The notes under the pieces were generated by a model. That model saw only the letters and a program-made list of their open reading frames with translations, ran no database searches and had not been told where the DNA came from. A program made the translations under genes and the position numbers. DNA of 64,000 nucleotides, taken from contig OZ237756.1 of assembly GCA_965178125.1 (NCBI GenBank), positions 620,001-684,000 on the forward strand. The letters run 5' to 3'. Of this stretch, positions 25,097 through 64,000 are shown in pieces (position 1 is the first letter of the stretch; each line of letters begins with the position of its first letter). Source of the DNA: Bilabrum cf. latius. Its lineage: Eukaryota.

Positions 25097-26849
25097 TCCA
25101 CTGTGCTCCTGGTGTCGTCATCTTGTGCATCTCCCAGACGATCGCCGAGACCGGACACCCCGTTAAAGGTCGTTAGGCGTGACCCCCGAACATGATAGGC
25201 GGGCGGGGAGTTAAACTCCTTCGCCAGGCCTAGCCATCGGTGAGCCGGGCCATCGGACCACGGGTTGCACTGTACATCGATCGAACCGCCCTTCTCACTG
25301 AGTCGAGTCGACTGAGCGTGGCCGTCACTCTGCCTGGTTGCCCAGTGCTAGAGGGTGCCACTGCCTCAGGACTCAAGACCCCGTGATCATCGAGTGTCCC
25401 GCTACCAGGTGTCTGTGGTTCTTTATGCCCGTTTACCAGCTCATCCCGGTGCGAGTCATACGATGGACGCGCAAAACTCTGTCACTTGTGGCACTTTCTG
25501 CCTGCCCACTCCTTTCTACTCGCGTCCTAGCGGACTGCACGGCGGAAGCACCGCGTCCCCGGGTGCCCGTGCTCCCCGGGTGAAGCACCCCAAACTGTCC
25601 GCGTCGTCGCCCAGACGGGCGCTGTGTGAGCCTCCTTCGTGATCGGCCCAACGCCGGAAACTACATGATTTCATTATAGGCATGTTCTGCCAGCCGCGCG
25701 CTGCCTCCCTCCTGCCTTGCGCTCCGCTGCACTCGTCAGTCGGGCCGGCGGCGTGCGGCGTGCGGCGTGCGGGGATGTCCTGCCCTGCCCCCTGAAAAAC
25801 CACCGTGTTCAACTGTGCATGGATACAGAGAAATGCTTATTGTGCTCGCTGCCTGGGGCGTGCCGTCACGAACCTGGGAAAGCGAATCGTCAATGGCACC
25901 GGCGTTTCGTTGTGCCGGCAGCGAGCAGTCACCACCCCAGTTCGGAGCGTCCGCAAGGACCGCAACCAAGCACATGACGCCTCTATCGACTGAGGTGTCT
26001 GACAATTTGAGCCATACGGTAGGGTGCCCAGCGGAGAAGTGTGTCTTGGACATGACGAATTCCAATCGGGCATGAACAATAGGCTGCCGAAATGCAGCGA
26101 AGCGTCAAAAGTAACCCACTGTTGCAGTCTCAGCCGCCATAATCCTAGCAAATACACATGTTTAATTCAGGAGACCGAATTCTCTGAAACTATAGCGTAG
26201 TTTGTCCCCTTGAAGAGGAATCGCACAGAAAGACATCGTGGCGCGTCTCAAAGCCCACCGAAGTCAGACTTGCTGGCAGCGAAGGCGCAACGAAAACTTC
26301 TAAAATAACTTGTGCCATCTAAAGCGTTCGAGTACTCAGTGCTGCGGCGCAGAGCTGCAGACTGGTCGTTGTGCCCTGAGCTGCGTGGGGGGGGACAACG
26401 GGTGGTGGTAGGTACACCAAGCGTTGAGGACGAGGGCTACGCTACGCTCGCCCCTCCTTTAAAGGCATATTTAGCAACTCAAGTGTTTTCCCTATAAACC
26501 TAGATGATTTCCCAAGGGGTTCCCCAAGAACCCCTATAGAACCCCTCTATGTACCCATTTTCAGATATAAAATTTACTCCTACGAAGTAGGGGTAAATTG
26601 AAGAATTCTAATCTTTATCCCCCTTATAAACTCTAACAGCAAAGACAGAGATGTTTTAGTAAAGTAGGAAAAAATGAAGAAATTAACCAAGTGTCAAAAA
26701 CCTCTCTGTGTTTGCTGTAGGAACGAAAGGATGAATTCCCAAGAGACCAAGAGACCAACCGAGGATTTTCCCAAGAGAACAAGGTATTTTATCAAGAGAA
26801 CAAGGTAGTTACACCAAGCGACAAACCGATGAACCGACCGATGAACCGA

Positions 26850-27340
26850 CCAAGGATTTCCCAAGGATTTCCCAAGGATTTCCCAAGGATTTCCCAAGGA
26901 TTTCCCAAGCGACTAAATTGTTCTCCGAAGCAACCAAACCGATTACCCAAGAGATGATACATTATAAGGAAAACGAAAACAAATTATAATTGTATTTTAA
27001 GTCCCTTTGGAAAAGTCCCCCAAAAATTGAGAGATTTGACAGGTCAATTATAAGAGACTTAGAAAGAATAAATATATTTTCCAATTAAAATTAAATGTTA
27101 TAATTCCAATGATGCCACCATTAAAATTAAAAGGAAAACGAAAACGTATTTTAAGTCCCTTTCGAAAAGTCCCCAAAAAACTTGTCAATTTTACAGGTCA
27201 ATTATAAGAGACTTAGAAAGAATAAATTAAGTTCCCAAGATGCTCGGGCTTTGCCCTCCGCTCTTTTGATATCTTTTTCAAAGATTAAAATTAAATGTTG
27301 TAACTCCTATGATGCCACCATAAAAATCAAAAGGAAAATA
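26850..27340. repeat. Subterminal repeats of element 2: 11-bp CCAAGGATTTC tandem (about 5x) and longer direct repeats
   Basis: Tandem at 26850-26908; AAGGAAAACGAAAAC..GGTCAATTATAAGAGACTTAGAAAGAATAAAT at ~26966 and ~27131. Confidence 0.85.
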
Positions 27341-27457
27341 AAAAACAAATTATAAATGTTTTCCAACTCCCTAATTAAAAACGCAAAAATTGATGGCCTA
27401 AAGTGGAAATGTCGTACCTTAAGCATAACTTACGTAGTCTATAGTACAACCACAAAA

Positions 27458-27697
27458 ATGGCAAAATCACAAAAGGAACTCGAGAATTACATCTTGGCGA
27501 CCAAAGAATGTCTTAAATCAGTCCCGTTTATTACAACACGAGAAGCATACGATATGGCCAAAAAGTACCTTGAATTTACAAAGACTATTATTTGGATTAA
27601 TTATGATGATGACGATGACCTGCTTGCTGACTTTGAGGAGGCTACAGATTTAAGTCAAATTGTAGTTGAATGGCACGAAAGTACCAAAACCAAATGA
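27458..27697 (+). CDS. Hypothetical viral protein, 79 aa
   Basis: ATG preceded by CGTACCTTAAG..TCTATAG motif; ends TGA. Confidence 0.6.
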   Translation: MAKSQKELENYILATKECLKSVPFITTREAYDMAKKYLEFTKTIIWINYDDDDDLLADFEEATDLSQIVVEWHESTKTK

Positions 27698-27762
27698 TTT
27701 TTTCCCAAGAATTATTTTCCCTACTTTACAAAAGTAAGGAGAATGATACAACTATATAGCAA

Positions 27763-28818
27763 ATGAGTAGCGCCTTTGAAAGAATATTACAATCCCTAAA
27801 CATTTATCCCAACAGTCGTATTGTAAATTTAATGAAACGACCAAAACGACCCAAAGGAGTAAATAGACCCCACGTAAATGTACCAGAACCTCACCAAGTG
27901 GTACAAATGGATTTATTATCATTACCCCACGACAAGAATTATAAATACGCATTAACCGCTATTGATTTACACACAAAGTAGGCCGATGCTGAACCGCTCA
28001 AAACCAAGCGTTAGAACGAAGTATTAAAGGCATCAAAAAAGATTTTCAATCGTGGAAATGTCCAGAAACCGCAGTACCGTTTGGAAATAGATAATGGAAA
28101 AGAATTCAATGCTTTACAAAGATATTTAGAAGAGACCGACGTATTTGTACGAAGAAATAAACCAGGTCGCCATCGTCAACAGGCATTAGTGGAAAACTTA
28201 AATAAAACGTTGGGAAAAGCCATATTTACCCTACAGAACGTAAATGAGTTAAATACAGGTAATGAAAGCGTAGAATGGGTGGATATGCTCCCAAACATCA
28301 TCGAAAACTATAATGAATATCAACTGGAAAAATATATGGAAGAACCACCTTTACCCCCAGAACACTTCGACTTTACGTAGTGCAAAGGAGACGCTTGTAA
28401 TGTATTGGAAGAAGGGACACGCGTAAGAATACCTTTAGAAGAACCCAGAAAGGCTACAAATTTACAGCAAAAATTATCCGGAAATTTTCGTGCTTCCGAT
28501 TTACGCTATAATCCAGAAATCAAAACGGTTACAAAAGTGTTATTAAGACCCGGACAACCACCCTTATATGTTGTGGATTAGGATGATTTAGTGGCTTATC
28601 CAAAAGAGGAATTACAGATTATCGACTTTGATAATGAGGACAATAATCGAGATGCTCAGACAATTTTTATCCCAAAAAAGATAAAATCCGAGAACGAAAC
28701 AGAATATCAAATAGAATGGAAAGATTTTCCAGAACCAGAACATTGGACGTGGGAACCAAAGAATAAAATCCAAGAAATTGCTCCTAATTTAATTTTGGAG
28801 TGGGATATAGAAAATTGA
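27763..28818 (+). CDS. Retroviral-type (rve) integrase with C-terminal chromodomain, 351 aa
   Basis: VQMDLL, EIDNGKEF, QALVENLNKTL (DDE); YQIEWKDFPE..WTWEP; internal TAG at 27979, 28012, 28378, 28579. Confidence 0.92.
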
Positions 28819-29062
28819 GATGCCCCGTATCGTACCTTAAGGATTATTTTCGTATTCTGATGCCAGAGTAAAAATTACCCAATCTCCGCCCCTCTCCTGA
28901 ACACAGAGAGGGTATGCGCGTCATCGCAAGCAATCCGTTGGCTTGGTCGCACCTTCCCGGTCGCAACCGCCATCGGAACCCAACGAGACGTTCACGCGCT
29001 CCCACTCTGGCATCAACACCGAACCCCATCCGGCGTTAGGATCATATAGTACAACAACAAAA

Positions 29063-30724
29063 ATGTCATTCACTCTGCCGACTAAAGCGTATTCGTCAAA
29101 AAGCCTTATGGACCTATGTAATGCCGGAAAACAAGAGGAATGTATTCAATACCTTAAACAATACTTCTACCGCACCCACGAGCAAGGTGGCGGGGTGTAT
29201 TTTCTAATAGCATCTGAATTAAATCGGAATAACATAAGTGATGACGAACCCCAGAAACCAGTCTGGTAGTTCCTTACGAATAAAAATATTACTGAAAATT
29301 ACCTGATTGGGGGACACTGTATATACGCGATTGTGGGCAACAAAAGAGTAAAGACTTGGTCAGCACGAGACTGGTTCTTAAATGAGAATACCGACGTATT
29401 TACGATTGTAAGAAAATTCAATTCACCTACCGTGGATTACGACAATCAAACAATTAACGTTATGGGTTCACCTATACTTACACGGGAAAACTGTGGAAAC
29501 ATAGAGGATTTATCCGAAGACGCAAAAGCAGGCGCGACTATGATTTATGAACATATCCAGAAGGTGTGGACTTCAGAAGACAAAGAATAGTGTGATTTTG
29601 TGATGAAATGGTTGGCTCACGTTATTGTGGGCGGAAAGAAGTTGGGTACAGCACTATATTTGAAATCTCCACAAGGAACTGGTAAATCGATGATTATTAC
29701 CTTCCTTATGAGAAAACTACTCGGATATACCCTTACACTATAGACGCTTACACACAAGATGCTTCAACCCGACGCCTTCAACTCAATTCTGGACGGGAAA
29801 CTATTAGTCAATTTTAATGAAATTCCAAAAGCCTCGCAAACTATTTGGGACGCCATGTAGGCAACGCTAAGAAATCTTATTACGGAAAAACACTTTTCAT
29901 GTAATGAGAAGTTTGTCAAATCCGAAAGTCGTCCCAATACATTCAATTTAATTATTGATACGAATGATAGTCCAATCAAAATCACCGAGGAAATCCGTAG
30001 ATATTGTGTTTTGGATGTGAATACATCTAAGAAAGGAGACAAAGAATACTTTACAACACTAAAACGTTTTACAGAAAATCCAGAAGTGGCTAAGGCATTT
30101 TATATGTTATTGGTTGAAATCTATGATACATCACCAGACTTTACAGGACAATTCGCACCAAAATCAAAGAATTTTTACAAAGGAATTCTTGATGGCGCAC
30201 ATCCGGTTTTAAAAATTCTAAAAGAAGAGTGGCTGGACGAAGGCAGAGATTTTAAAATGACAGTCTTGGAATTCCGCAATTATCTAAAGTAGGAACTGAA
30301 CGGTAGAGTGAAGAACCTTGGTACACCTATGATTAAAACACTATTGTCAGAGGTGGGTGTTCATTCAACGATGAACAAATAGAGAAAACAAGAATTTAAT
30401 GTGAAACACGCAGACTTACTAAAAGGCTTCCAATCTAAATTTTAGGCACTTCGTCATTCTGCTGAGATGGAAAAAGCAAAATCCGAGGTAGATGTTCTTC
30501 GAGAGTAGATAAGAGAACTACAGAAACAAGTCGCATAGCAGTAGGAAACGATTGAATAGTTGGAATTAGAAAAGGAGATTACACCGACGGAAAAAGTCCA
30601 TAAGAAAATCCAGAAACAGCTGAGTGTTGAGAATAGCATCGCTATTCAAAAATGGATAAAAGAGAACCCACCAAAGAACAAAAAAGGGAAACTTTCTAAA
30701 TTCCTCTGTAAAATTGAGAAGTGA
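29063..30724 (+). CDS. SF3/D5-like helicase, 553 aa
   Basis: WLAHVI..ALYLKSPQGTGKS (Walker A), LVNFNE, IIDTND, RRYCVLD; C-terminal coiled coil; only TAG interruptions, ends TGA. Confidence 0.87.
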
Positions 30725-30781
30725 GTGAGTTCATACCTTAAGAATAATTATCGTATTCTATAATATATTAGATACTATAGA

Positions 30782-32623
30782 ATGCCCGAAATCGATTTTA
30801 TGGAACCCCAAAGAACCAAATTGCGTCTTAATGGGAAACCAATATGGAGTATGCGATTTGAGAGCGAGGACCTTATCACCGTAAAAGATGTCTTGGAATT
30901 TATTCGTGATTACGACGATGGTGGTGAAAATCCGTTTGATGACTTTAAATTTAAGGTGAATATCAATTTTCAAGATACAGGTTGGCGAACAAGAAGCACT
31001 TGGATTACTACAGATGATTTAGAAAATCAAGATAGTTTATGGGCGGGTTACGAAGACGACGATGACGACGAATATAGAAAATTGAATTCTTTTGAACTAC
31101 TGCTTATTAGAAAGCCAGAACCAGAAGGCGGTGCTGACGAACATAACGATTGTTTATATAACGCTATAAAATAGGCTTTTCCTTTTTCAGTTGGTCGTAA
31201 GGTAAATGTAAAGAACGCAAAAGGCAAATGGAAAACTACTATTAAAAGATTGTCGAAGTCCGACCTCAAAGAACTCTTGAAAATTGGGCGTGATGACCCA
31301 ATCGATTACAGAAGAATACCAGAGATAGAAGACGAACTTGAATTACGCATTCATGTTGTAGGCGACTTTGAATACACATCTGGAAAAACTCATTTTGACC
31401 GTCTTCTAACTGTTTCATTAACAAATGGGCATTACAAGTATGTTCCCCCCATTAGTTAGAAAGAATTATTTACACCGCCGTCTAAAGAACCGTGTAGACT
31501 AATAACCCGCTTGTATCAATCCGAGAATTCTTATTTACTATTTGATGGAGACCGTGAATATCAATCAGAAGGCATTACATCGGTTTTTAAGGAGAATTTC
31601 ATCCTTGACGTTAAATCCAAGGAAGAACTACGAACAAAACACGAAGAACGGATGAAAAATGTAAGGGCTTTATCAAAGGAGACGGGTGGATATATGGATT
31701 TATCACGATTTATGTTTAGAACATCCCTATTTGTAAAGTCGTATTTCAGTAAGTTTTCCAAACTTTACCCTGCCGACCCGATTGACCAAGTTGAAGCACT
31801 ATGGATTTCTAAAGCCTCGGGTGGTGGATTGAATTGGGCAAACAAGAATACTACATTAAAAAACGCATACCAGTACGATATTAACTCATTTTATCCAAGT
31901 ATTATGAAGGGTACATTTACATTTCCGGTTAGAAGGGGTAAGTTCGTAAAATTTGAAGTACCTTCAAGTGGTTTCTATCCGTACGGCATTTTTAGGGTAC
32001 ATATTGAAAATATCAATTCTAAATTGGTACAAAAAAGAAAAAACAATTATTATACTCAATATGACATCAACCGAGCGATTGAGACGGGCGCTTAGGTGTC
32101 ACTTATTGAAGACGGAGAAGCCAACGCTTTACTTTACGATGAGACAACAAGGGTGAAGGCAAATGGACTTTTCAAAACGATGATTGAGCGATTGTACGGT
32201 TATAAAAAATAGGGATTGAAGTGTGCGAAAGAGATACTGAACAACATCTGGGGTTCTCTATGTTAGAAAAACACAATCACAAAAACACTCCGAGATGGTG
32301 ATTGTATGAATTTTAGACAATTAAAGAACGCGTATCCTAAAGCATCTGGACGACTTGTATCGGGTACACTCTATGACGAAGAGTACGATTACAAAACAGC
32401 CTACGCAAGAATAGGTCCCTTTCTGACTGGACTTGGACGAAGTAAATTGTCCAAAATGATTGAGCCATATCTTGAAAACATTCACTATGTCAATACGGAT
32501 GGTTTCATTAGTGAGAAAGAATTACCTCTAAAGTTGTCAACGAACCTTGGGGGTATGAAGTTGGAGCAATCAGGTGAATGTCAAATTATTCACAGTAAGA
32601 AGAAACTTTTTAGAAAAGATTGA
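30782..32623 (+). CDS. Protein-primed family B DNA polymerase with N-terminal TP-like and vOTU-like domains, 613 aa
   Basis: YDINSFYPS, AKEILNNIWG, YVNTDG; GGADEHNDCL and LTNGHY; five internal TAG. Confidence 0.9.
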
Positions 32624-32624
32624 A

Positions 32625-32897
32625 TTAAATAGTCTGTTTTTCCTTAAGCTTCTCAATTTCCTGTCGCAAACTATCAAGTTCATCCATTATGTTAATTTGT
32701 TCCCTTTTTGTGTCTTCCTCTTTTTTAAGCCAATCAAGGTGTTTTTTTGTTCTACAATGATGTGATTTATTGTACTTCTTATATACGCCACCACACGAGC
32801 ATTGTATCTACTCGCCAAGTTTTCCCTTATTTTTCCGGTAGTATTCACGGGCATACAGCTTATCCTGTTCTTTTCTTTCTGAATGACTGAGTGTCAT
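32625..32897 (-). CDS. C2H2-type Zn-finger protein, 90 aa
   Basis: YAREYYRKNK..IQCSCGGVYKKYNKSHHCRTKKH; one TAG; ends TAA. Confidence 0.75.
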
Positions 32898-32933
32898 TTT
32901 TGTATTCTATAGTATTATACTATAGAGTTAGAT

Positions 32934-34139
32934 TTAAGTATCGTAGGCAAATATTTTCCAAGCCTGTTTTAGGGCATTCTTCTTGGATATTCCTTTTCCT
33001 CTTAAAATGGACGCCATTTTCATAACTCTTGAACGTTTGGTTTCACACTGACATTGACCTCCAAATAATTCCAGATACATACCCGATACTGGGTCATTCG
33101 TATGCGAATGGATTTCTTTCATAATTGGTTTTCCAACTGTTTTAGTTGCTAAATCCCAACCTTCCTTAAAGTCTGTTCCAAAATCCCTTTCTGTGTTCTA
33201 CTTATGCTTTTTCTAATTTTTCATTAAGGCGTTTCTGACATCTTCCGGTAAATCATCTAAACCTCTCCCGAACCATTTGGAAAAATACCCAGCGACGTCA
33301 GTAGCAGCATTAGCCACTCTCTTAGTAAATCCCGATACACTCTTAGCAATACTCTCTACGTCCTACATAATAAATTGGTTTAAGGGTGGTGTCAAAAACC
33401 CATTTGTGCGCAGAACATCTTGGATAAATTTTTGGCAGTTCAGACTAAAAGCACGGTACTGATAAAAGTTGTATTCTCCAATTTTCTGTAAAGTGGTCTC
33501 AAATAATTCCCTTACTGTTTTCTGAGGTTTTCCATTAATATTTACTTCCATAGTTTGAGTTTTCTTGTTGGTGGAAAATCGTGGGGACAAATTAACCCTC
33601 TCATTCTTCTCAAGATAAATCTTTTTTCCACCTCCAAGGTTCAATTCTAAGGCTAAATGGAAGAAATCATTATATCCGTGTTTATTTTTTAGTTTTTTCA
33701 TTTTTCCCAAGGTTATCCAGTTGAGTAACCGATTAATCGCACCACTAATAGGGGTTCTAATTACTTTCATAGCAATGATTGTTCTATCCCCGTATTGTTG
33801 AAGATTTCTCTGGACTTCGTTTGTATTTCCATACACTACTCCACCTTTAAGCTGTTGCGCCAGCTAACTGCGCCGAGAGGGGGTGCTTCGCAAACCATCT
33901 TTTAAATATTTATGAAGTGTGTTGGATTGTGTGGATTTCTTCTTGGATTTCTTTTTGGGTTTTCCTTTTGTTCCCAGACCATCTTCAAACTTAATTGCTT
34001 TTTCAAGAGCTTCTTTAGAATAAGGATATTCACTTCTCCAAGTCCTTGTTGTTTTACTCTTTGGTTCTTTCACACTAATGTACGTCTTAACAAAACCAGA
34101 ATTCATTTTTCCGCCACTAAGTGTATAAAAACTATCCAT
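32934..34139 (-). CDS. Protein with permuted papain-like (PPPDE/LRAT-type) domain, 401 aa
   Basis: Three ORFs in one frame joined by TAG; FFHLAL..LEKN and YQYRAFSLNCQKF. Confidence 0.65.
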
Positions 34140-34164
34140 TTAGTATAGGCTTGTATTAAAAAAC

Positions 34165-34782
34165 TCATAGACGACTTCCAAGACCGAAGGTTTTCCGGAC
34201 GAATTCCTCCAGTTGCTAAAAGGATGAATAGACACAGTACTAACTCTAATGTAATCCAGCGATTAAATTCGTTCTTGAGCGTTCCACAGACAATAAGTCC
34301 CCCGATTTTTTCCCTTCACGGATTTCCTCAAAAAGACTGTGAGAAGGCACACACACAAAAATTGAACTTTCCTTAAATAAATCTTTCGCTAATTCCAACG
34401 AACCAACCATAACAATTAAACGTCTGGATTTCTTCGTGAGCCAATCCGCTTTAATTTTTTCATACACTAATCTTGATTGGGAATAATAAAAGAGGCGGTG
34501 GGTACTTTCATCACCGTCAACCAACATTTTCTCCATCTTTTGCTTTTCCTGTCCTGAAATTTGAGCATTTACACACTCGTCTAAATCAATAATTAGCGTA
34601 TCCTTATCCACCGCTTCTAGGGAACGACATAACGTAGTTTTACCGCTTCCTTTTGGAACAACCACGCACGATTTCTGTTTCTAAGTTCCGTCTTTCGTCC
34701 ACCAAGAATACAGACACTTGCTTCCTGTATAAGCTAAAGGGGCTAAAGTCCCAGCAACCATTACAGCAGTTGATACTGACAT
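34165..34782 (-). CDS. P-loop (kinase-like) protein with hydrophobic N-terminus, 205 aa
   Basis: VVVPKGSGKTTL..IIDLDE; same-length homolog at 61572-62189. Confidence 0.75.
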
Positions 34783-34837
34783 TGTTTTGATATACTATAT
34801 ACCAAGACAAATATTTATTGGTTTACCCTTTTCATAT

Positions 34838-36604
34838 TCACTGCTACAACATTGCGAGTAGTTGGTTACGAGATAAAGATTTCCCACCTGTTAAGCCCGA
34901 GCCTAACTTGGCACCTGTTAAGCCCTTGCCTTTCTTGGTAGTTTTTCGGGGTTTCCTTTGGCGACCCATTCCAGCCATTTCACCCACCATTTTAGCGGTG
35001 TCAAATACCTACTTACCATCCTTTAATACTTTTTTGAGATTGCCTTTCTTTACCCAATCAGCGGTTTTGTGTGCGAACTTTTTTAAGGCGTGTCTAATCT
35101 TTTTACCAAGACCCCTACCGTGTAGTCCGCTTAATTGACTTTCATATACTACGGGTAATTTAGAGGCGGAAAGAACATCTGCCCGTGAGATGACACCCTG
35201 CTAATACTCGAACTTAGACCCATCAATCAAATTTAATACTCCTTCGTATAATCCAATCACAACACACTACACATTATCGTAGCCCACATCATCATTATTC
35301 TTCACTCGTAGGGTTATAGACAGTTGGTTAGACCCGTTGCTACCATTTGTCTAATCCACATCTAAGCTTAAGTCCTTGGCGGGGTCAATACATAACAGAC
35401 CACCTGATAGCACCCTATCCCCGAATTTACGCATAGCCCATTCATTATATTGCTATTCAAGTCCGTTGCTTCTGGATAAGTCCCATAACTGCTGTGGCGA
35501 TGCGTCGGCGAGTAATCCACTATGGTTATTCATCTCTATACTAATTCCATCAATTGCCATGAATGTGTTTCCCTAATCTACTGAAAGGGTTGTAGGTGAG
35601 CGACGGGCAAACACAAATAAACGACTTGGAACTGAATTACTAAGCTTAATATTGTTATTGTAAAGAGTTGCTGTAGTACCTGCGGCAATTGTTGGACTAT
35701 GACTTTGGGTATACGAAGTCATCTCAAAAATATCATACGAGACCTATTTAGGAAGCACAAATCCTGTTTTAGGTGTAATCTATTCAAGGTATAGGACTGG
35801 TTCTTGGACATCTACCGACTAAATGGTAGCAGTTAAGCCCTATTGTGGAATACGAGACCACACGGTTCTACTCAGTTGAGACCAATTAATATTTAAGGAG
35901 AGTGTTTGAATTCCGTATATAGCCGTTTGTTCCTATTTACTTTCGTAGTGGAAAGGTGGACATAATACCGCCTCAGTGCATTCAAAAACAAGAACACGAT
36001 TTTGAGTTTGACCTGCGGGTACATCAGTATTATCCATTTGATACAAATTGTAAAATCCACTTCCTCGGGCTGGTTGGTCCTAAAGCACGTCCTCATACGA
36101 AGCAAGAGCGTTATTCGTAGACTAACTCATCATCGCGTATGAAGGCACATTATCGCGTCTATACACACTATCAAGGCAATTCACACGGTGGACATCATCA
36201 TCTAGTAAATGGGACAGAGCGTCCATTAGTTCGCCGTTGTTCTGGGTATAGCGAAGGTTATTAATGCCAACTGTCTATGTTGCGATGGAGCGATTAAGTG
36301 GATAGGAGCGTGGAGCATCGTAATCTGGTCTAAAGGGTGCTAGACCACCTGCGGTTTGATTATTCACGGAAAAGGTGATAGAAAATCGGCACGAGACATA
36401 GGCACGACGGCACAAACCTACACCTGAAGGCATACTAATATTCCAGTTGACCCCGCTGTTGTAGTTTCCGGCAGACCCGGAGGGGTTATATTTACGGAAA
36501 GTCCGGTTCTCATAACCTTCTTGAACTTCATACGGCTTCGGTTGTACATCTAGTGTTGCGGGTGATACTTTGACTGGCTGAAGGGCAAAGGTATTCAATG
36601 ACAT
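34838..36604 (-). CDS. Virophage major capsid protein (double jelly-roll), 588 aa
   Basis: YPLNR, NALASYED..ARG, EAVLCPPF, GIQTL, MNNHSGLLADASPQQLWDLSRSNG, GVISRADVLSA, basic Gly-rich tail; about 15 in-frame TAG, no internal TAA/TGA. Confidence 0.92.
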
Positions 36605-36709
36605 TTTTGTTTTCCTTGTATATTATATACAACGAATAAAATTCTATCACTCAGTTCTTTAGAAAAGAACGCAAACTCGTTTCTTCATAAAAGTAATACA
36701 AAACTAATT

Positions 36710-37819: not shown

Positions 37820-37875
37820 TTTACTATAGAGGCTTATAATTATGGGGTGGGTTTGATTACTTTTCTAAAGTATAA

Positions 37876-38367: not shown

Positions 38368-38407
38368 TTTATAGTATATCCACAGAAATAATTTTTATCA
38401 GGTTGCG

Positions 38408-48967: not shown

Positions 48968-49045
48968 TTCCTATAGTATATTATATTTAATATATTTTTA
49001 AGCCATTTTAAACACATATTATAAAGTTTAAATTATAAAATGTAA

Positions 49046-51747: not shown

Positions 51748-52554
51748 ATGGACAAATAGAGATTTTCATTGACCTTTGGCGATGCTGGAGAGAATCATAT
51801 AGGTATGGAAATGTTAGGTGAAAGGCTCAAGGAGGGAGAAGGATTTAAAAATGAAGATTTGAAGGGGGTGATGGAGGTATGCGAGGAGAAAGGGTTTAAA
51901 TGTGAAATGATAAATTTAGATGAAGATGTAGATGAAGATTTAGGGGCTAGGGTATTAATAGTAAGGGAATTTTATAAAAAGAAGAAAATTAAAAAAGTCT
52001 TTGACGAGTTGAAGGGGTTAGAGTGGGACAAAAAGTATTTTGATAGAAGGCGGGGGAGGGTGTTAAATAAAAATGCCCGTCATAATTTAGTATTTATGAG
52101 TGATAATGAATAGAAAGAAGATTATGAAAAGGGATAGGGACGAGTATATGATGTGAATAAATTGAAAATGATGAAGGGAGTAAAGAAAAGGGTAGATAAA
52201 TATATAAAAATGGGAATGGATAGGGTAAAAAGTAAATCCAAAAGAGTAGATTACGTTATAGAGGGTAATAATTATTATGATTTGTCCCGCACAATGATAG
52301 GATTTCACGGTGATAGTGAAAGAAGGCGTGTAATATGTCTATCAGTCGGTGGTTATGATGAGCCTATGGCGTGGTGGTGGTTCAAAAATAGCAAGCCGTT
52401 ATGTGAGCCCCGTATTATTAAATTAAATAGTGGAGATTTATATATGATGAGTGAAAAGGCGGTTGGTAGTGATTGGAAGAAGAAGAAAGTGTCCACATTA
52501 AGACACAGTTTTGGGGAAAAAGGCATATAGGCGGGATTAAAAAAATATAAGTGA
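51748..52554 (+). CDS. 2OG-Fe(II) dioxygenase (AlkB-like fold), 268 aa
   Basis: TFGDAGENHIGM, NKNARHNL, EGNNYY, IGFHGDSER (HxD), LNSGDLYMMS, TLRH; ends TGA. Confidence 0.82.
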
Positions 52555-53109: not shown

Positions 53110-54999
53110 TTAAGATGTGCTTAAAAGGGCCTCGAGATCGTCTGTTTTCATTGCCGCACCTCCACGCATCGTAAGTTTTCCGCCAAGTTTATTCAATTCT
53201 CCTCCACTATTTCCATATCCATAATGTGCCGCCGCTTTGCCAATAGCGCTATTGTCTCCTGTTAGACTTTTGAGTGGTCCTATATTCCTAATGGTTTTCG
53301 CTAGGTTTTTAGCCTAATCACTTTTTGCCCAATCTTTAACCTGATTCCATCCGTGTTTAAAGGCTCGTCCAATCTTAGACCAGAAACGACCTTTTCCACC
53401 CATAACATTAGCATAATTATCTAAATCCTCAAATACAGGCTAGAAACCTTTAGAACCACTTTCAGCATCACCACGTTTAGCAAGTTCAGAAAGCACTTTA
53501 GAAGGCTCAATAAGGGCGCCAGCCTCAGTATAGACACCGTTATCATTCACAAGAACATTATCATAAAACATCCATACTTTTACCTCGTATTTATCCTCAT
53601 ACGCACCATCCGCATATTTATTATAAGGGTTGAAGCACTAAAGATTAACTTTAAGATTAAATCCAGTATTTACATTAGATTGAACACCAGCAAGTGTAGC
53701 AACATCTGAAGGTTTTAAAATCATATAGCAACCAGTACCGCGGTTTCCATCACTTCCATCAATTGATGAACCATAAAAGGATGAAGGAGGAAGAGCATAT
53801 CCGTTCTTTCTACTAATTCTATATAATTCGTGTGGATTATCTACAGCCCCTAATTCCTCAGCGCTTCCATTGAGTGAGAAACCTATTCTTCTAATTGGTA
53901 AAGTTCTATTAGCCCAGTTAGGGTTATCATCACAACCAACAAGGCGGGCACATACCATAATAGCACTAGGGATACCATTCTCACGGGATAATTGATAATC
54001 AAAAGAAGTTAAAGAATTTTCAGTTGCGGATTTAGGTACAGGGACAGGCGCCTAAGACTAAAATTTAATTGTAGGCATATTATACATACAACGAGTCGGG
54101 GGGGCGTATCCACTCTAAAATTCAACTTCATCAACAAGAAGGGTCGTATTTGTTTCTCCTATAATTGACTAACCCGTTATTTTATTAATATCTCCGTTAT
54201 CTTTTGTAAAACTAGCCTTACACAGTCTTTGAATAGCATTTACGTGATAATCTAAATCAACTTGAAGGCTTCTTACACCGGTAAAATATTTAGCATTTAC
54301 ATCAACATCTGCTCCTTTTAGTGGTATAGCTTCTTGAAAATCAATAGTCCAATCAATTTGGTCTCTATTACCCGCAACGAAATCAGCATTTACAGTCGTA
54401 AAAGCATTCCCATATGCTCCACGATAACTAAAGCTATCACCGGCACTATATCCAACATCCTAACCCCAAGCTAAAGGATTTTTAAGGGTATCACTTACTT
54501 CACGATAATCACCAACAGTGTCAGGGCGTCCAACGGGTGAGATTGTGGATAAGGTTTCTTCACTGTTCATAACTTCAGTAGGTTCAGCCCATTCATAAAC
54601 TTTTACTGTAAAAGGCTATCCATTAATTGTTAAAACACCACCTTGAAGCATTTTAAAGGTAGGTAATGAATTAGTTCCAAACCTAGATTTAAGATAAGAT
54701 TGAGCGGTAATAGCATCACCTCCCGCAGTTTGAGCTGGTACTGCTTGCTCTAGTTGTAGCCTAACTGTCATACGATGACGAAGACGAATAAACCTTGATA
54801 CGGTTTTACTAGTAGGATTAACGGGGAAAGAAAGGGGAAGAAGAGAATTAGATTGATTAGATGATGGTCTAATTTCTCGGCGGGTATATTTTTGAACACC
54901 TAGTTCTGTTCCTAAACTAGCATCTTCAGGGGTTATCATTTGAAGGCTTTTAGGAGCCTTAATGCTTACTGGTAAATTCTGAACCATTTGTTGAGCCAT
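53110..54999 (-). CDS. Virophage major capsid protein, 629 aa
   Basis: NPHELYRISRKNG aligns with SPQQLWDLSRSNG of element 2; GG-rich basic C-terminal tail; single frame. Confidence 0.87.
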
Positions 55000-55070: not shown

Positions 55071-56024
55071 TTAAAAATCTAAACTTAAATTATCGGTTTG
55101 TTTTTTAAATACTTGTTTAATGTGAGCTTCACCCCCGTTAAAATTCATTACGGGATACTTTTCATTTTGTTTATCAACCCAGTAGAACGCCATTGACACG
55201 CTCTTAAAGCTTCTATCCTTCATCATTGAATACCAGCGGTAAGGATTAGAAACATATAATATATTTTCTATTGGTGAGCTGTCATTAGGATTATACGGGT
55301 AGCTGGTTAATATAGGGGATTTATTGACGGCTATAGAGCCACCAGTAGATGATTTAGTGGTCACCAATTCTTTATTAACTGGAATATCACTTTCTACGAT
55401 AATAGATTTAACAGGGCACCAAGAATTTAAATTCGTCTATCTAGCCATAAAAACATAATCACCACTAGCAGGGGAATTATTATATGAAAGTTTAGCAAAT
55501 AAATCACTCGGTGTGGTTGTTATTCCTTCATATTCAAATTTATCAAATAAAGCAAAAGCTTCAAAATTAACAAATAAATAATAATTATCTCTAAAATCTT
55601 CAGTTGTTGATAAACTCCATTTATTATTTTCAAATTTAAAGACTGGTTTATCACCACTTGGAAGGCTTACCAAATCACAAATTCGGCTTAACTCTTCATT
55701 AAATTCATTTACAATATCCTAATATGAATAATAAAATTTAGCTTTTTTACCTAGAACTATATAATCGCCTGCTCTGGCTCCTGATGTTTTATTCTCAAGA
55801 GTAAATTTTAAATAGGTTTTACCGCTGTCATCCTAATATTCAGGTTTAAACACCGGTAGCATAAATTTATTTAAATCCATCTCTTCAACAGCCGTTAAAT
55901 AATTTTCACTTTGTTTTAATATTAAGCCTTCACGGGTTTCATTCACTACCGCCTATCTCGTCTAATTGTGGGGGACAGATGAACTAACTAAATTCAATCT
56001 TACAAATTCATCGCTATAACTCAT
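55071..56024 (-). CDS. Virophage penton protein, 317 aa
   Basis: NETREGLIL..NYLTAV..MLPVFKP; PYRWYSM..FYWVDK..HIKQVFKK. Confidence 0.85.
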
Positions 56025-56360
56025 TTTATTTATATATTAAAGCTATACAAATAAATATTTATTAATAAACCTTATCTAATATTTCATCTTGATTTTTACC
56101 CTTCACTTTTACCAATATATTTAAAAGTTTGATTGAATTTAGATGGATGAAAAATTGCCCTTCTAAAACGATGGAACTTTTCTAAATAAAAGGGCTTATA
56201 TCTTCATTTCACCTTCACAAGAGGCCCTACATCCACGTTTTGCTAGAAAACACTATAATATATACGCAATTTGTGGATATAGCCATCGTATGGATTTTAT
56301 TTTAGAGATAATCATATTTTATTATTTTATTCTAGCCCTTTTATTAGATGGTCGGAGTAT

Positions 56361-56936
56361 TCAATGTAGAAGCAACGCCACTAACTAATCAGGACTAAGA
56401 GCCATAATTTTGGATATTCTAAACATTTCATTTACAAACTAATCATTTGATAAGAAAGAAAAAGCGTTTCTTAATAGAGCCCATCTTCCACACGTAGCGC
56501 TGTTGTTAGCATAACTCTAAATCGGTTTATGATTATAATCAATTTTCCAACCTTCCATTTTCTAATCAATTAAATACTTTACCAGCGTATTTTCTTCTCC
56601 TTCTCCTTGATACAATTGGTCTCTATTAATAAATGGTTTCTATTGGTCGGGTTTTTCTCCATAGCTATCAAAGAAGTATATTATTTTGCTTGATGGTTTT
56701 CTGGTCAATGAAATGAAATGACCGTATGTGCTATTTAGTCCCGTCTTTTTATTAGGATAATAAATAATTACGCCGTCATAACCATCAAAAATATGTTCAA
56801 TAGATGAGGTCTATTTAATAATATCATCGTAAATAACTATTCTAGGTTTGTAATTCAAATGTGCTACACCTAATTTTTGAATTTCTAAAGGAGATAACGG
56901 TGTTTGGACTAGTCTATTTAAGTCGTTTATGTTCAT
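56361..56936 (-). CDS. Adenain-like maturation cysteine protease, 191 aa
   Basis: YGHF, FFDSYG, YNHKPI(TAG)SYANNSATCGRW. Confidence 0.92.
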
Positions 56937-56944
56937 TTATATAT

Positions 56945-58015
56945 TCAATAGAGAAATATTTTTTTTGTGCTAACTACATAATTATTATCAACATTAATAG
57001 CAACATAACCAAAGAGAGGGAGAGAATGAAGGGTTTTTTTAATTCGTTTTCTAGTAGGAGCGTCAAAACTTAAGACTGTTTCTAAAATATATTTTAAACT
57101 TTTAGCTGTAATTGTTTTATAAATGATATGGGTTGTAATTTCGTTCATAATGGTTCGTGTCTTCATACCGTCGCTTATTTTGTGGGTGATGTCTAAAACG
57201 CTACTTGCTGTGTGCCTTCCTGTAGTTGCTAGGATTTCCAATAAAAAATAAGCCTTTGCTTTCTGGTTCCTTTTTTTAAAGCCTTCGTAATCATCCAGAA
57301 TAAATAAATTAGGTTCAGCGGTCAATTTTTTAAAAAACTCAACATTTAATTTAAAACCTTTTTCTATTAAATCTTTCTCAGGTTTCAAATCCTCTATCTT
57401 TCTTTCAGCTTCAATAACAACATCTAAAGGTTTAGATTTCATCAAAGAAGATTTTTTATATTTAAATTCTAATTTCATTTTTTTATAATAAGCCATTTTT
57501 TCCTTATATAAAGTGTTTTCATTCTCTTTAACCAAATCATCTATATCAATGAAGGTCGCGCCTTCTCTTTTATATTTAGGGTCTTGAATTGGTGATATAA
57601 CATACATATTTTTATATTTTAATCCTCTATACATCCTTATATAATGTAAAGCTAAATGACTTTTCCCGCTTCCACTCTTACCAAATAATCGCACATATTC
57701 ACGCCCCTATGGAAAGAGCATAGGAAAAGGTAAATATTGACTATTATCTTTAATCGCAAATTCCTAAACTGACCGTATATATTCATCTTGTAATAGTTTA
57801 TGTAATTGTTCCCTTTTCTTGTCCTTATCAACGTTATATCTTACTCGGCTTTCTCCGTAATAAGATTTTAAAACATCATCTGTTATCTCTTCCGCTTTGA
57901 CGTGTTGAATATCTTTAGCGTTCGGGTCGTAATAAATAAACCGGTTCTATTGTGTTTTTTTATATTTTTGAATAGCTACAATATGGCTATTTTCCGTATA
58001 TTGTAAAGATAGCAT
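56945..58015 (-). CDS. FtsK/HerA-type genome packaging ATPase, 356 aa
   Basis: GKSGSGKS, FILDDYE, TGRH; N-terminus recovered through TAG. Confidence 0.9.
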
Positions 58016-58107
58016 TATATATAATAATAAAATAAAATAAACCATTTATTCACACGGGTTTAAAATATTAAGTTGGTTCCTTCTTCTATCCTTCCTCACA
58101 AAAAAAG

Positions 58108-61571: not shown

Positions 61572-62189
61572 ATGGCAGAGTTAGTAGCAACAGCAAGCAC
61601 GGTTGGTGGGGTGTTGGTTCCTCTAGGATATGCGGGATGCTTCCTTTGGAACTTATGTTCCTCACTTGCGAATCGTAAAAAATTGTGTTTAGTCCTTCCA
61701 CGAAAAGGAGGTAAAAGTTCACTTAACAAAAGTTTAACGTCTATAGACCCGAATATTCTATTAGTTGATTTAGATGAAGTCCTTAAAGTTAATGCTGACA
61801 CCAAACAGGTTTTATACCTAAACGAAGCAGAACGAAGAGGGGACTTATCAACGGCTAAATTATTAAAATTTGAACTTATGAAAAAAAGTATTGAGTCTGT
61901 AAAGAAAAATTGGTTATAGAAAGCAGAACATAGAGCAGTCTTTTTAACAAGTGATTTTGAACTAGCACAAGAAATATTCAAAAAATCCAGCATATGCGTA
62001 GCTATACCCAGCGATAAACTGTATAGCAAAATCCATAAAGATTTAGATAATGAAGATAAGGATGTAGCAAGACATTCACGAGCTGAATTTTTGAAAAGTT
62101 TTAACCCTAATGAGTATAGCGTGTATAATACGTTTGAAGGGCTTTCATAGATGGTTATGTCAGTCTATAATATGACCTACAGAGTGTAA
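61572..62189 (+). CDS. P-loop (kinase-like) protein, 205 aa
   Basis: LVLPRKGGKSSL..LVDLDE; homolog of 34165-34782. Confidence 0.75.
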
Positions 62190-62225
62190 TTATTTGAATA
62201 TTATTAAAATATAAATTAATAATAT

Positions 62226-63383
62226 TTATTTAGTCTTATTATTAAAATTATCCTTTAGAGTTTTTGATATATTTTTAGCCGGCTCCGTTGTTATCTTCCA
62301 TTGAATTAAATATTCATCTTGTCCCTCTTGATTCTTTCTTCTCTTTATTATTTTACCTATATCATTCTAATATTTTCTTTTAGTAGCCTCATCAACATAT
62401 GAATCTTTCCATTTAACCCTGTATGTATTATTTTTATTCTTTCTTATCAATTTTTCAATTATAAATATATCTTGTGCTTTATTCTCGTATGGTTTAGATG
62501 CTAATAACAACTAATCTCTATTAAAGTATGTATAGGGTATGCCCTCAATTTTATATAATGGGGGGTTATCTGGTTTTATTATTACTCTTTCAATTTTATA
62601 AGGCTTTACGCTATATTTAATATCTCCCGCCCTAAATGCTCCGGTCTCCTTTATCCCTTCTATACTTCTAGGATAATCTAATCCTATTCTTACCATTTCA
62701 CCCTCATTTAATACATCACATACTTCACCCTAACATCTAGGCGGTATATATGGTAGATTCTCCCTTTTCTTATTCAACATTTCCTATCTTGTTTTATAAC
62801 GCTCGTTTAATATCTCCCTCAACTTTGGTATTAAATGTCTCCAGTTCGTAATAGTTGTCCCCGTTCTTATCTCCTATGAATTCAAATAATAAAATATAGC
62901 TCTCCCTATTTCCTCATTCAATCTCTCCACCAAAGCCATCTACGATTTACGCTTCACTCTTGAAAATATATGCTCTATCTTATTCTTCTTTAGATATTCT
63001 TTAAATAATTCATTATCAAATTCTCCCCCTTTATCTGTTCGTATCATTTTAGGTTTCATTAAATAATTTCTTTTATAGATTTTTTGAAAAGCTTTTATCA
63101 CATCCTCCGCCCCTCTATCCTTTAACTCTTCAAAATCTAACGCTAACCCGCTCGTATCTATCACAACTAATAAATATTTTGAATCGTTCTTGGTAGCGTA
63201 AGGGAGATACAATAAATCAGCCTATTGGATAAGCCCCTCTTTAGTAGGTTTATAATATTTAACATAATTCAATCCTTTCGGTTTCTTTATCGGCTTCATT
63301 AAATCGTTCGTGATAGACTTCGTATTAAATCCAAAACTTGACTCATTAATATCATTATCTTTTTTCTTTCCTCTCTTACTCAT
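62226..63383 (-). CDS. rve integrase with chromodomain-like C-terminus, 385 aa
   Basis: IQ(TAG)ADLL, RTDKGGEF, (TAG)MALVERLN; YRVKWKD and YLIQWK. Confidence 0.92.
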
Positions 63384-63423
63384 TATATATATTAATTGAT
63401 TTTAATATTTATAAATTAATTAT

Positions 63424-63795
63424 TCACGGATTAAATAATTTATTAATAGCTTCATTCGTTTTAATGTGCTCCTTGGTGTCTCTTATCTCCTAATGGATAT
63501 CAACCAACTTTAATTTTTCTTTCTTAGTGAGTCCGTTCATCCTTCCCTTCAATTCTTTTAAAGTTTTCATATAAGGGGCTATAGCTTCTGCTTTCTTTTT
63601 GCTCACCTCTTTATATTCCACATTAAGAGCGGTTAATTTACTATTCACTTTATTTTTTAATTCTGTCTCTTTTATTTTTAGTTGCTTTAACTTTTGTTCT
63701 AATTCACGATTGGTCTTCTTAAAGTCTTCTACAATATCAAGAAATTCATTCTTTAACTTTGAGCGGGTATTAATCACTTTTTGTAATTTATCCAT
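63424..63795 (-). CDS. Coiled-coil protein, 123 aa
   Basis: Heptad-rich ORF extended through one TAG to TGA. Confidence 0.6.
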
Positions 63796-64000
63796 TTATA
63801 TATAATTACTAGATATTTTTTTTATTTTTTTTAAACTTCATTTTAACTCTTTGTAATTCTCGTGCTATTTCTAATTCCATCAATCCCCTTATTATTCTGC
63901 CATCGTGATAATCCTAAGATGAACAATGAATCAAATCATTCTAAACTGCCGGTAAAGGTATTCTATACATCAATTCATATTTAATAATCTCAAGCGTTAT

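Follow-up and report, generated by a model that had tools for sequence, protein, structure and literature searches.

Three virophage-class elements and a TAG-glutamine code apparently shared with the host in a 64-kb stretch of Bilabrum cf. latius

The window analyzed here is a 64,000-nt stretch of Bilabrum cf. latius DNA (assembly GCA_965178125.1, contig OZ237756.1, positions 620,001-684,000, forward strand). It contains, in order, element A (1-5050), host DNA, element B (26387-39870), a 1.76-kb unit, and element C (41676-64000). The host chromosome (5984-26000) has about 60% GC and encodes a thymidine kinase (8303-9577), an OGFOD1-like oxygenase (9855-12695), a TPM/RING protein (12978-14750), a kinase (15140-15958), and an Armadillo-repeat protein (16225-18363), with a 115-bp satellite at about 20450-24100 and a 39-bp tandem array at 24400-25200. 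Element A (minus strand) is of virophage type and low in GC (about 30%); the window start cuts it and leaves its end portion, and GC rises to the host level near 5100, to its right. It encodes a PrimPol-helicase (242-3040; 932 aa, 11 in-frame TAG; Prim-Pol 8.9e-14) that is 36% identical to that of element C over 821 aa, and only small ORFs at 3040-5050. Element A lies outside the interval (26387-64000) covered by an earlier, sequence-only reading of this DNA.

Element B is about 13.5 kb long with approximate ends, has 37-40% GC, and begins with a non-coding flank rich in repeats (26.4-27.4 kb); all 10 of its ORFs are open when TAG is read as glutamine. On the plus strand are an integrase (27670-28818; 5 TAG) matching rve (6.8e-10) and a C-terminal Chromo domain (5.8e-06), both over the Pfam cut-offs; a DUF5906/VapE-like P-loop helicase (29063-30724; 11 TAG; DUF5906 2.4e-15) 57% identical to its orthologue in metagenome locus L005; and a protein-primed PolB (30782-32623; 613 aa, 5 TAG; DNA_pol_B_2 2.3e-06, 27.2 bits, cut-off 25.8), whose L005 orthologue has the same length and 61% identity over 611 aa. 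The minus strand encodes a putative 401-aa protein (32934-34139; 4 TAG), which adjoins the capsid module, occurs in relatives (44-46% identity to L005 and L004 proteins of 306/367 aa), and matched no Pfam family in the profile search. Next to it are a 205-aa P-loop protein (34165-34782) conserved across B, C, and every metagenomic relative; the major capsid protein (34838-36604; 588 aa; Sputnik_MCP_1st 8.1e-25, MCP_V20_C 1.6e-27), aligned to Sputnik V20 (3j26, 2.1e-30) over residues 24-490; the penton, or minor capsid, protein (36710-37819; 369 aa, 15 TAG; V18-19 3.2e-09, 36.5 bits, cut-off 27), 53% identical to its L005 orthologue; and a 163-aa protein with a 339-aa basic protein (37876-39427). 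The model of the 205-aa protein was poor (pLDDT 59); its weak fold matches resemble small nucleotide kinases, none reached E<=0.001, and they gave no support to a packaging-ATPase role. The N-terminus of the 163-aa protein matches a 173-aa protein of C and, weakly, 20 residues of a 381-aa protein of L005, and the 339-aa protein shares homology with a portion of an L005 protein of 477 aa. By eye, the start of a 278-aa protein of L004 resembles the 163-aa protein. B has neither a packaging ATPase nor a protease, 2 of the 4 virophage core genes, both present in its closest relatives. A 187-bp insertion (28858-29044, 58% GC), present in this copy only, interrupts a conserved promoter motif 18 nt ahead of the helicase start; the insertion-free joint (28857 to 29045) was present in contigs of all 4 sequencing runs compared. 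Because its bin lies far above its neighbors in summed contig depth, the insertion is probably a host repeat.

The 1.76-kb unit between B and C (39868-41628, about 50% GC) has two ORFs that matched no Pfam family, and it forms its own contig in the assemblies of other runs. On either side of the unit is a copy of a repeat of about 190 nt (39679-39842 and 42504-42667); further copies lie at 50132-50294 and, in inverted orientation, at 56205-56364. Element C is at least 22 kb long (28-35% GC), its right end probably lies beyond the window, and all 22 of its ORFs are open with TAG as glutamine. Its PrimPol-helicase (42810-45587; 925 aa, 20 TAG; Prim-Pol 7.2e-16, PriCT_2 3.2e-06) is on the plus strand, and the genes that follow are on the minus strand. 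PolB (47468-49387; 28% identical to L005 PolB, 7e-26) is in two ORFs, a body (47468-48967, 499 aa) and an N-terminal domain (49046-49387, 113 aa), 78 nt apart with four TAA/TGA stops in the spacer. The major capsid protein (53110-54999; 629 aa, 9 TAG) is of a divergent lineage: its MCP_V20_C match (0.0036) was under the cut-off, among solved structures it comes closest to the mavirus capsid (6g45, 6.1e-08, residues 92-615), and the best full-length sequence among its 54 relatives is 32% identical. The penton (55071-56024; 317 aa, 5 TAG) matched V18-19 at 5.3e-07 (29.2 bits, cut-off 27). A CE-clan cysteine protease of the adenain/Ulp1 type (56361-56936; 191 aa, 6 TAG) has His73, Asp90, and Cys149 invariant across a 3-sequence alignment, and its predicted structure (pLDDT 75.5) had 22 PDB matches at E<=0.001, including the adenovirus protease (1nln, 1.1e-04). 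A candidate packaging ATPase (56945-58045; 366 aa) has Walker A and B motifs read from the sequence; it had no Pfam match or PDB sequence match of its own, and is weakly homologous (1e-05) to a 300-aa ATPase of L004 with a Pox_A32 match under the cut-off (9.5e-04); the assignment is weak. The integrase (62226-63383; 7 TAG) has an rve core (5.8e-11) and a Chromo match under the cut-off (1.8e-04). The profile and structure searches that the sequence-only reading had proposed for capsid, penton, ATPase, and protease recovered capsid and penton in B and C, and protease in C.

A short conserved AT-rich motif lies immediately 5' of the ATG in nearly every viral gene. A 17-mer was found in 9 copies (0.47 expected), confined to A and C, and for 8 of these a listed ORF begins directly downstream. 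In B and L005, the helicase and PolB genes are both preceded by a conserved B-type motif that ends in TATAGTA. The elements represent at least two very divergent virophage lineages, and their gene content joins Sputnik- or mavirus-type capsid genes to a mavirus/Polinton-type module (rve integrase, protein-primed PolB, helicases).

The sequence-only reading had described nearly every long viral gene between 26387 and 64000 as rich in TAG read as sense, with about 15 in the B capsid gene. This observation was confirmed and extends to the third element at 1-5050: at least one in-frame TAG was present in 30 of 33 viral ORFs of A, B, and C, and the B capsid gene has exactly 15. In-frame TAG under the glutamine reading numbered 68 in B (10 ORFs), 99 in C (22 ORFs), and 11 in A (1 long ORF). 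When the elements were re-annotated in the style of table 15, as had been suggested, coverage by ORFs of at least 150 aa rose from 0.22 under the standard code to 0.84 (B) and 0.81 (C) with TAG as sense; no comparable gain was seen in B or C when TAA or TGA was made sense instead. Stop-to-stop ORFs of at least 300 aa in B numbered 7 with TAG as sense and 0 with the standard code, TAA as sense, or TGA as sense; the corresponding numbers for C were 7, 0, 2, and 0. Viral genes end in TAA or TGA. Off-frame, TAA plus TGA occur at frequencies of 0.055 (B) and 0.096 (C) per codon, and the chance of a frame free of both is about 3e-15 for 588 codons and about 3e-41 for 925 codons. Gene lengths in B match those of metagenomic orthologues (capsid 588/587 aa, PolB 613/613, helicase 553/547, penton 369/375, P-loop 205/206), so the absence of in-frame TAA/TGA is not due to the ORF definition. 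The divided PolB of C qualifies the earlier statement that in-frame TAA/TGA and frameshifts were absent from the genes translated. Standard gene calling does fragment such genes, which the earlier reading had expected standard annotation to miss; JGI/IMG splits a related capsid gene into pieces of 109-150 aa.

Comparison with homologs indicates that viral TAG is read as glutamine. At 206 TAG positions aligned across 10 gene families, the opposite residue was Gln 62 times (30%), Glu 21 times, and Lys 19 times, a profile matching that of the canonical codons CAA/CAG (Gln 28%, Glu 11%, Lys 10%), and Gln fitted better than any other residue, by 59 log-likelihood units. Within the codon alignment of the capsid gene, TAG was opposite CAA/CAG in 10 of 23 TAG columns and shared in 3. 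When this copy of B was compared with near-identical copies in other sequencing runs, 2 of the 25 synonymous differences were TAG to CAG. The viral genes hold 178 TAG, 56 CAG, and 284 CAA, with 0 in-frame TAA in 11,114 codons. TAG makes up about one third of viral Gln codons, near the base-composition prediction (TAG/CAA/CAG shares: B, 0.33/0.49/0.18 observed and 0.38/0.38/0.24 predicted; C, 0.36/0.58/0.06 and 0.41/0.41/0.18).

The host also appears to read TAG as sense, judging from two genes of the 64-kb window with in-frame TAG in conserved domains, as expected of the stop-reassigned host that had been proposed. The oxygenase gene has 5 in-frame TAG, 3 within the catalytic domain, and its alignment with human OGFOD1 (4nhx, 5.3e-45) is continuous across TAG codons 28, 46, and 114. 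The TPM/RING gene has 1 TAG, within the Pfam-aligned N-terminus. The 6 host ORFs examined all terminate with TGA. No tRNA gene was found anywhere in the window, the three elements included.

In metagenomes, TAG-coded relatives were found on five contigs, with 48-59% identical capsids and the same TAG-sense code. The capsid gene has 3-6 in-frame TAG and no TAA/TGA in 5 of 5 loci, and ORF coverage of these loci rose from 0.18-0.32 to 0.72-0.90 with TAG as sense. Differences between B and its near-identical copies were 25 synonymous and 10 non-synonymous; these are the 35 in integrase, helicase, and PolB among 40 listed of 293. The dN/dS values for L005 compared to L003 were 0.14 (capsid) and 0.06 (206-aa gene). 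These data show purifying selection on the viral genes.

Taken together, the data make it very probable that the window is a GC-rich eukaryotic chromosome stretch with three integrated virophage-class DNA viruses in which TAG encodes glutamine throughout. One other scenario is that the viral genes are dead and their TAG codons arose by C>T damage at CAG, through deamination or repeat-induced mutation. The presence of CAG in relatives at some B TAG sites would fit, as would the two missing core genes and the insertion in B. However, C>T change giving a TAG/(TAG+CAG) ratio of 0.76 should have converted most CAA to TAA, and all 284 CAA stand beside no TAA; relatives also carry TAG where B has CAA/CAG, the TAG/CAG exchange running both ways, and gene lengths equal to those of orthologues, the 25:10 ratio among copies, and dN/dS of 0.06-0.14 likewise oppose decay. 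This scenario is already contradicted and has virtually no probability left, in agreement with the earlier view that these are not pseudogenes. A code imposed by the virus on a standard-code host, as in TAG-recoded crAss-like and Lak phages, has a documented parallel, in that code-15 phages occur in standard-code hosts according to PMC9523058. It is very improbable here given the TAG codons within conserved domains of host genes in the 60% GC region, the lack of a tRNA gene in any of the three elements, and one code in 33 of 33 viral ORFs, with no early/late split.

Free viral DNA could also have been misjoined to host DNA during assembly. Summed contig depth for B and C was several times that of host bin 25335-26001 in 4 of 4 runs, although this is not copy number; B and C yielded neither terminal inverted repeats nor target-site duplications; and among the listed contig pieces of other runs none bridges the host-B junction, which comes from the window's own assembly. 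Against misassembly are the three different elements within 64 kb, with host DNA separating A from B, the resemblance of the GC-rich insertion in B to a host repeat, and the integrases encoded by both B and C; we consider it improbable. Somewhat less unlikely, but still not favored, is that the elements are self-sufficient Polinton-like viruses or transposons independent of a giant virus. They carry the Polinton/Maverick module of rve integrase and protein-primed PolB, the window has no sign of a helper, and some Polinton-like viruses are described as replicating without a giant virus (PMC10945749). Nevertheless, the capsid and penton proteins match virophage families (Sputnik V20 and V18/19, mavirus capsid), and the AT-rich motif 5' of ATG is placed as described for virophages using giant-virus transcription machinery (PMC10945749). 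Of the earlier claims, virophage type, TAG as glutamine, and freedom from decay stand. The description of the proviruses as intact was only partly right: the missing ATPase and protease of B, its promoter insertion, the failure to find terminal inverted repeats in B or C, and the extension of C to the window end do not agree with it.

Several known systems resemble these virophage-class elements in part. The B capsid aligns to Sputnik V20 and the penton matches V18/19; Sputnik uses the standard code and is not known to have an rve integrase or protein-primed PolB. Cafeteria and its elements also use the standard code, unlike A, B, and C; the B capsid is closer to Sputnik V20 than to mavirus, and terminal inverted repeats were not seen in B or C. 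As in the code 15 phages (crAss-like, Lak), viral TAG encodes glutamine and standard gene callers fragment the genes. In those phages, however, the phage code differs from that of the host and late-gene regulation is the proposed role of recoding, whereas here host and virus share a code that all viral genes follow. Mavirus and the endogenous mavirus-like elements (EMALEs) of Cafeteria burkhardae (PMC10945749) show likenesses, namely low-GC virophage genomes within a GC-rich protist chromosome; an rve integrase, protein-primed PolB, primase/helicase, capsid, penton, protease, and ATPase; the coexistence in one genome of several divergent types, each with its own promoter motif; and truncated and complete copies side by side. 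Endogenous Polinton-like viral elements of Streblomastix strix use their host's table 6, which the authors interpret as reflecting a long association (Bellas et al. 2023, PMC10120064), so host-coded endogenous viruses are not unprecedented. Both cases involve integrated capsid-encoding DNA viruses that follow the reassigned stop codons of a protist host. TAA and TAG are both glutamine in S. strix, the capsid there is of the Metamonada group and related to that of Trichomonas elements, and capsid genes only were analyzed; in the present elements only TAG is reassigned, the capsids belong to Sputnik/mavirus families, whole elements were covered, and the code is common to free-standing environmental relatives.

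In the favored explanation, the host would translate UAG as glutamine and keep UAA and UGA as stops, and the viral genes, made by host ribosomes, would have evolved for a long time under the host code. The elements may have entered through their rve integrases. The motifs just 5' of start codons may act as promoters for the transcription machinery of a helper giant virus. Element C has every core gene and may still be able to form particles, and B probably could not do so on its own because it has no ATPase or protease. Relatives of B in environmental DNA use the TAG-sense code, which makes the code clade-wide.

Base composition divides the window into element A (1-5050, approximately 30% GC), a host block (5100-26400, approximately 60% GC), element B (26400-39870, 37-40% GC), a 1.76-kb unit between B and C (39870-41630, approximately 50% GC), and element C (41676-64000, 28-35% GC). 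Element A resembles B and C in kind, making three such elements, and lies outside the region covered by the sequence-only reading, which had described B and C as intact endogenous virophages recoded to the TAG = glutamine code of their host. The PrimPol-helicase of A is 36% identical to that of C. Identity between the shared proteins of B and C is just 23-39%, which makes these two elements separate lineages.

Several repeats lie in the window. The host DNA just left of B holds a 115-bp satellite (20450-24100) of approximately 33 copies, most of them 86-92% alike, followed by a 39-bp tandem array (24400-25200). The left edge of B (26846-26906 and 26992-27344) has an 11-nt unit repeated approximately 6 times in tandem, together with two direct-repeat pairs of 61-93 nt; this edge varies between copies, since contigs from other sequencing runs skip parts of the region. 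A unit of approximately 190 nt occurs four times in or beside C, at 39679-39842, 42504-42667, 50132-50294, and, inverted, at 56205-56364. Two of these copies are direct repeats around a 2.8-kb segment, and the contig of one run joins 42581 back to 39777; the unit could represent a small mobile element or a regulatory cassette, or it could result from recombination. The 1.76-kb unit (39868-41628) carries two ORFs, of 153 and 239 amino acids, without a Pfam family, and is a separate contig in other runs, with a summed depth several times that of the host flank bin. Loose contig ends at 39536/39541 resembled an insertion breakpoint accompanied by a 6-bp duplication, a reading that was rejected because these ends carry the same sequence in a locally diverged form.

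Under the standard code, neither B nor C has a single stop-to-stop ORF of at least 300 amino acids, whereas each has 7 when TAG is read as sense. Reading TAA as sense yields none in B and 2 in C, and reading TGA as sense yields none in either. Coverage by ORFs of at least 150 amino acids, 0.22 in both elements under the standard code, reaches 0.84 in B and 0.81 in C with TAG as sense, compared to 0.43 (B) and 0.54 (C) with TAA and 0.43 (B) and 0.26 (C) with TGA. The probability of a 588-codon frame free of both TAA and TGA, calculated from the off-frame frequency of these codons, is approximately 3e-15. The open frames with TAG as sense are thus real and far beyond chance, and coverage, counts, and the chance estimate agree with the earlier observation of long viral genes rich in TAG but free of in-frame TAA and TGA. 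In total, 178 TAGs lie in frame in the 33 ORFs taken as viral genes, of which 11 are in A, 68 in B, and 99 in C, and 30 of the 33 ORFs have at least one; the B capsid gene, for which about 15 had been proposed, has exactly 15. The 33 genes end in TAA (20) or TGA (13), and those of B match their orthologues in length.

Comparing the three elements only with one another (23-39% identity) was too noisy to name the residue encoded by TAG, and closer relatives were needed. When ten gene families were aligned, the residue facing TAG (n = 206) was glutamine in 62 cases, glutamate in 21, and lysine in 19; for canonical glutamine codons in the same alignments, the partner was glutamine in 28%, glutamate in 11%, and lysine in 10%. 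A substitution-matrix likelihood placed glutamine ahead of glutamate by 59 units. In a codon alignment of six capsid genes, TAG occurred in 23 columns, in 10 of which other sequences had CAA or CAG; in 3 of the 23, TAG was common to B and the L002 group of metagenome loci. Contigs from four public runs contained copies 95-99% like B. Among the 40 differences listed of 293 between these near-identical copies, 25 of the 35 in the integrase, helicase, and PolB genes were synonymous, 2 of the 25 being a change of TAG to CAG, so that TAG and CAG are exchanged between near-identical copies. TAG is read as glutamine in these viruses, with TAA and TGA as stops, the pattern of translation table 15.

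The host uses the same assignment. Its 60% GC block holds ordinary eukaryotic genes, among them an OGFOD1-like gene with five in-frame TAGs, of which codons 28, 46, and 114 are inside the catalytic domain; this domain aligns with human OGFOD1 unbroken through the TAG codons (5.3e-45). A TPM/RING gene has TAG at codon 29, within its Pfam-aligned N-terminus. TAG made up 7 of 3366 codons in the host sample, or 7% of glutamine codons, compared to 31-36% in the viruses. The viral share is close to that predicted from base composition, which points to a long evolution of the viruses under this code and not to a recent arrival. All six host ORFs end in TGA; TAA as a host stop was thus not seen directly in these six. 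A protein search (Atlas) with the host thymidine kinase returned generic thymidine kinase clusters only.

These results bear on several other explanations. The TAGs could be CAG codons damaged by C>T decay in pseudogenes, but decay that had turned 76% of CAG-type codons into TAG would also have turned most CAA into TAA, and the genes keep 284 CAA codons with no in-frame TAA. The lengths of the B genes also match those of their orthologues, and selection is purifying where measurable. This explanation fails; as the sequence-only reading had proposed, the genes are not pseudogenes. Nor does a code imposed by the viruses on a standard-code host, as in code-15 phages, fit the data, because host genes have in-frame TAGs of their own and a tRNA scan of the window found nothing. 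An Rfam scan of the window also gave no hit. It could also be argued that free viral DNA was joined to host DNA by misassembly, since none of the listed contig pieces from other runs bridges the junction; this is unlikely, given that there are three elements, that host DNA separates them, and that B contains a host-like repeat. The core of the sequence-only reading, virophage-type proviruses in the TAG = glutamine code of the host, is supported.

This part of the sequence-only reading therefore stands; the word "intact" holds at best for C. Both B and C have a virophage-type double jelly-roll major capsid protein. That of B matched Sputnik_MCP_1st (8.1e-25) and MCP_V20_C (1.6e-27), Pfam families built on Sputnik V20, as well as Sputnik V20 itself (PDB 3j26, 2.1e-30). 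Element B also encodes a penton (minor capsid) protein (V18-19, 36.5 bits with a cut-off of 27), an integrase with both rve (6.8e-10) and a chromodomain above cut-off, a protein-primed PolB (DNA_pol_B_2, 27.2 bits with a cut-off of 25.8), and a helicase (DUF5906). An rve-family integrase and a protein-primed PolB, which both B and C encode, are characteristic of mavirus/Polinton-type integrating elements. Neither an FtsK/HerA-A32-type packaging ATPase nor a protease was found in B, and tblastn at E ≤ 1 detected no remnant of them between 26 and 41.7 kb, whereas the B-type metagenome loci L004 and L005 have an ATPase of 300-324 amino acids and a protease of 175-181 amino acids beside the penton gene. 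In all four runs compared, the contigs join across 28858-29044, so the B copy in this window carries a 187-bp insertion (58% GC). It lies inside the motif found ahead of the helicase and PolB genes in B and in L005 alike. The first bases of the insertion form a perfect 12-nt inverted repeat with a site approximately 40 nt from its end, and in two runs the bin that contains it has a very high summed contig depth; it resembles a miniature host transposon of high copy number. Mavirus/Polinton-type elements also have terminal inverted repeats and a short target-site duplication, but we found no inverted repeat joining the ends of B. The end of A was unlike the ends of the other elements. Because it lacks the ATPase and protease and has an insertion in a promoter motif, B is most plausibly a copy whose genes are open but which is itself defective or dependent.

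The four core genes are present in C, a candidate ATPase among them, and C is possibly complete. Its major capsid protein has the mavirus capsid as best solved relative (6g45, 6.1e-08 over residues 92-615), with a Pfam match below cut-off, and its penton protein matched V18-19 at 29.2 bits (cut-off 27). A cysteine maturation protease of virophage type was matched in C only. This 191-amino-acid protein has a CE-clan fold (model pLDDT 75.5, 22 PDB hits at E ≤ 0.001, including adenovirus protease at 1.1e-04) and invariant His, Asp, and Cys residues. Beside it, a 366-amino-acid P-loop protein is a candidate packaging ATPase from its weak homology (1e-05) to the ATPase of L004, which itself has a Pox_A32 match below cut-off. 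The 366-amino-acid protein had no Pfam or PDB sequence hit, and PDB sequence searches with the protease and the candidate ATPase gave chance-level matches only. The C integrase has rve above cut-off (5.8e-11) and a chromodomain match below it. The replication genes of C are a PrimPol-helicase and a homologue of the PolB of B and L005; PolB is in two ORFs, with the N-terminal domain separate behind a spacer with four stops. No terminal inverted repeats of C were found within the window, and its right end is probably beyond it. Accessory genes of C encode a DUF5872 protein (46566-47273, 4.9e-21) and a protein weakly like 2OG-Fe(II) oxygenases (51748-52554, 7.4e-04, below cut-off). Given the chromodomain-like C-termini of both integrases and the satellite nearby, it might be speculated that the presence of three virophage elements beside satellite DNA reflects targeting to heterochromatin.

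In B and its metagenomic relatives, a further P-loop protein of 205 or 206 amino acids adjoins the capsid module; C has it as well. The B-type proteins are 56-59% identical to one another and 30-34% identical to that of C. The protein gave a poor structural model with no fold match at E ≤ 0.001, and no Pfam family was above cut-off; it may thus be an undescribed conserved virophage gene. Its positions are 34165-34782 in B, 61572-62189 in C, 11802-12422 in L005, and 7778-8398 in L004.

Full-length relatives of the B capsid protein were present in the protein collection, and a metagenome scan added five loci whose capsid genes are 48-59% identical to that of B. In each of these genes TAG occurs in frame 3-6 times and TAA and TGA never, and ORF coverage of the loci increases from 0.18-0.32 to 0.72-0.90 only with TAG as sense. 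The contigs had no terminal repeats and no host-like flanks. An IMG/VR scan with a B-type capsid profile found one distant standard-code relative (26%), and scans with the C capsid and C PrimPol-helicase found no relatives there. For the C capsid, a word-index protein search returned none and an exhaustive search returned 54, the best full-length one being 32% identical. The related proteins are without a name in all sources, and JGI/IMG calls a related capsid gene in pieces of 109-150 amino acids, which bears out the expectation that standard annotation misses TAG-coded genes.

A TATAGTA-type motif lies 5-20 nt ahead of the ATG in almost all B genes, and the B replication genes share a longer motif that is kept in L005 despite approximately 40% protein divergence. 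Elements A and C share another motif, a 17-mer with 9 copies compared to 0.47 expected; 8 of the 9 are 30-45 nt upstream of listed ORF starts. Such short motifs close to the start codons speak only indirectly for replication in dependence on a co-infecting giant virus. An IMG/VR scan for this 17-mer gave 8 single matches, about chance level, and no contig with several copies. The endogenous mavirus-like elements of Cafeteria burkhardae are the closest system to A, B, and C, and each virophage type there is described as having a distinct motif linked to particular giant viruses (PMC10945749, in the available text). The closest precedent for the code is Streblomastix strix, where the available text of Bellas et al. 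2023 (PMC10120064) describes endogenous Polinton-like capsid genes that follow the host's table 6. The available part of a 2026 catalogue (PMC13524828) indicates that some giant-virus genomes annotate better under alternative codes, code 15 being among those tried, and includes no virophages.

Our full-text literature search found no report of a virophage-class virus with a reassigned stop codon. Endogenous virophages are already known, and adoption of the host's code is what one would expect of viruses in a recoded host. Virophage-class viruses in a reassigned-stop code would nevertheless be new, with the endogenous Polinton-like precedent in print. The UAG = glutamine clade occurs as copies in this chromosome and, in several metagenomes, as contigs. 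Virophages form in the factories of giant viruses and their proteins come from host ribosomes, and co-evolution of such a clade with its host would therefore imply giant viruses under the same code; that these elements live without a giant virus seems rather improbable to us. A host-range barrier and a recoded helper giant virus, both proposed from the sequence, are reasonable inferences. The barrier would act as a one-way firewall: a capsid gene with 15 TAGs would not be expressible in a standard-code cell, while a standard-code virus entering this host would suffer only read-through at its TAG stops. By analogy with the Cafeteria elements, C, in which all core genes may be present and putative promoters are conserved, could serve as an inducible defense against giant viruses. 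We put forward only tentatively, as somewhat less than an even chance, the combined reading of a virophage clade that co-evolved with UAG = glutamine eukaryotes and giant viruses of the same code, a one-way firewall, and an inducible defense in C. If the finding of virophage-class viruses with a reassigned stop holds, standard gene calling hides such viruses, and a TAG-coded capsid profile could retrieve recoded virophages and their helpers from metagenomes. It would also mark this GC-rich eukaryote as having a rare UAG-only reassignment and provide a three-partner system of host, virophage, and unseen giant virus in which a code change could be tested as a limit to host range.
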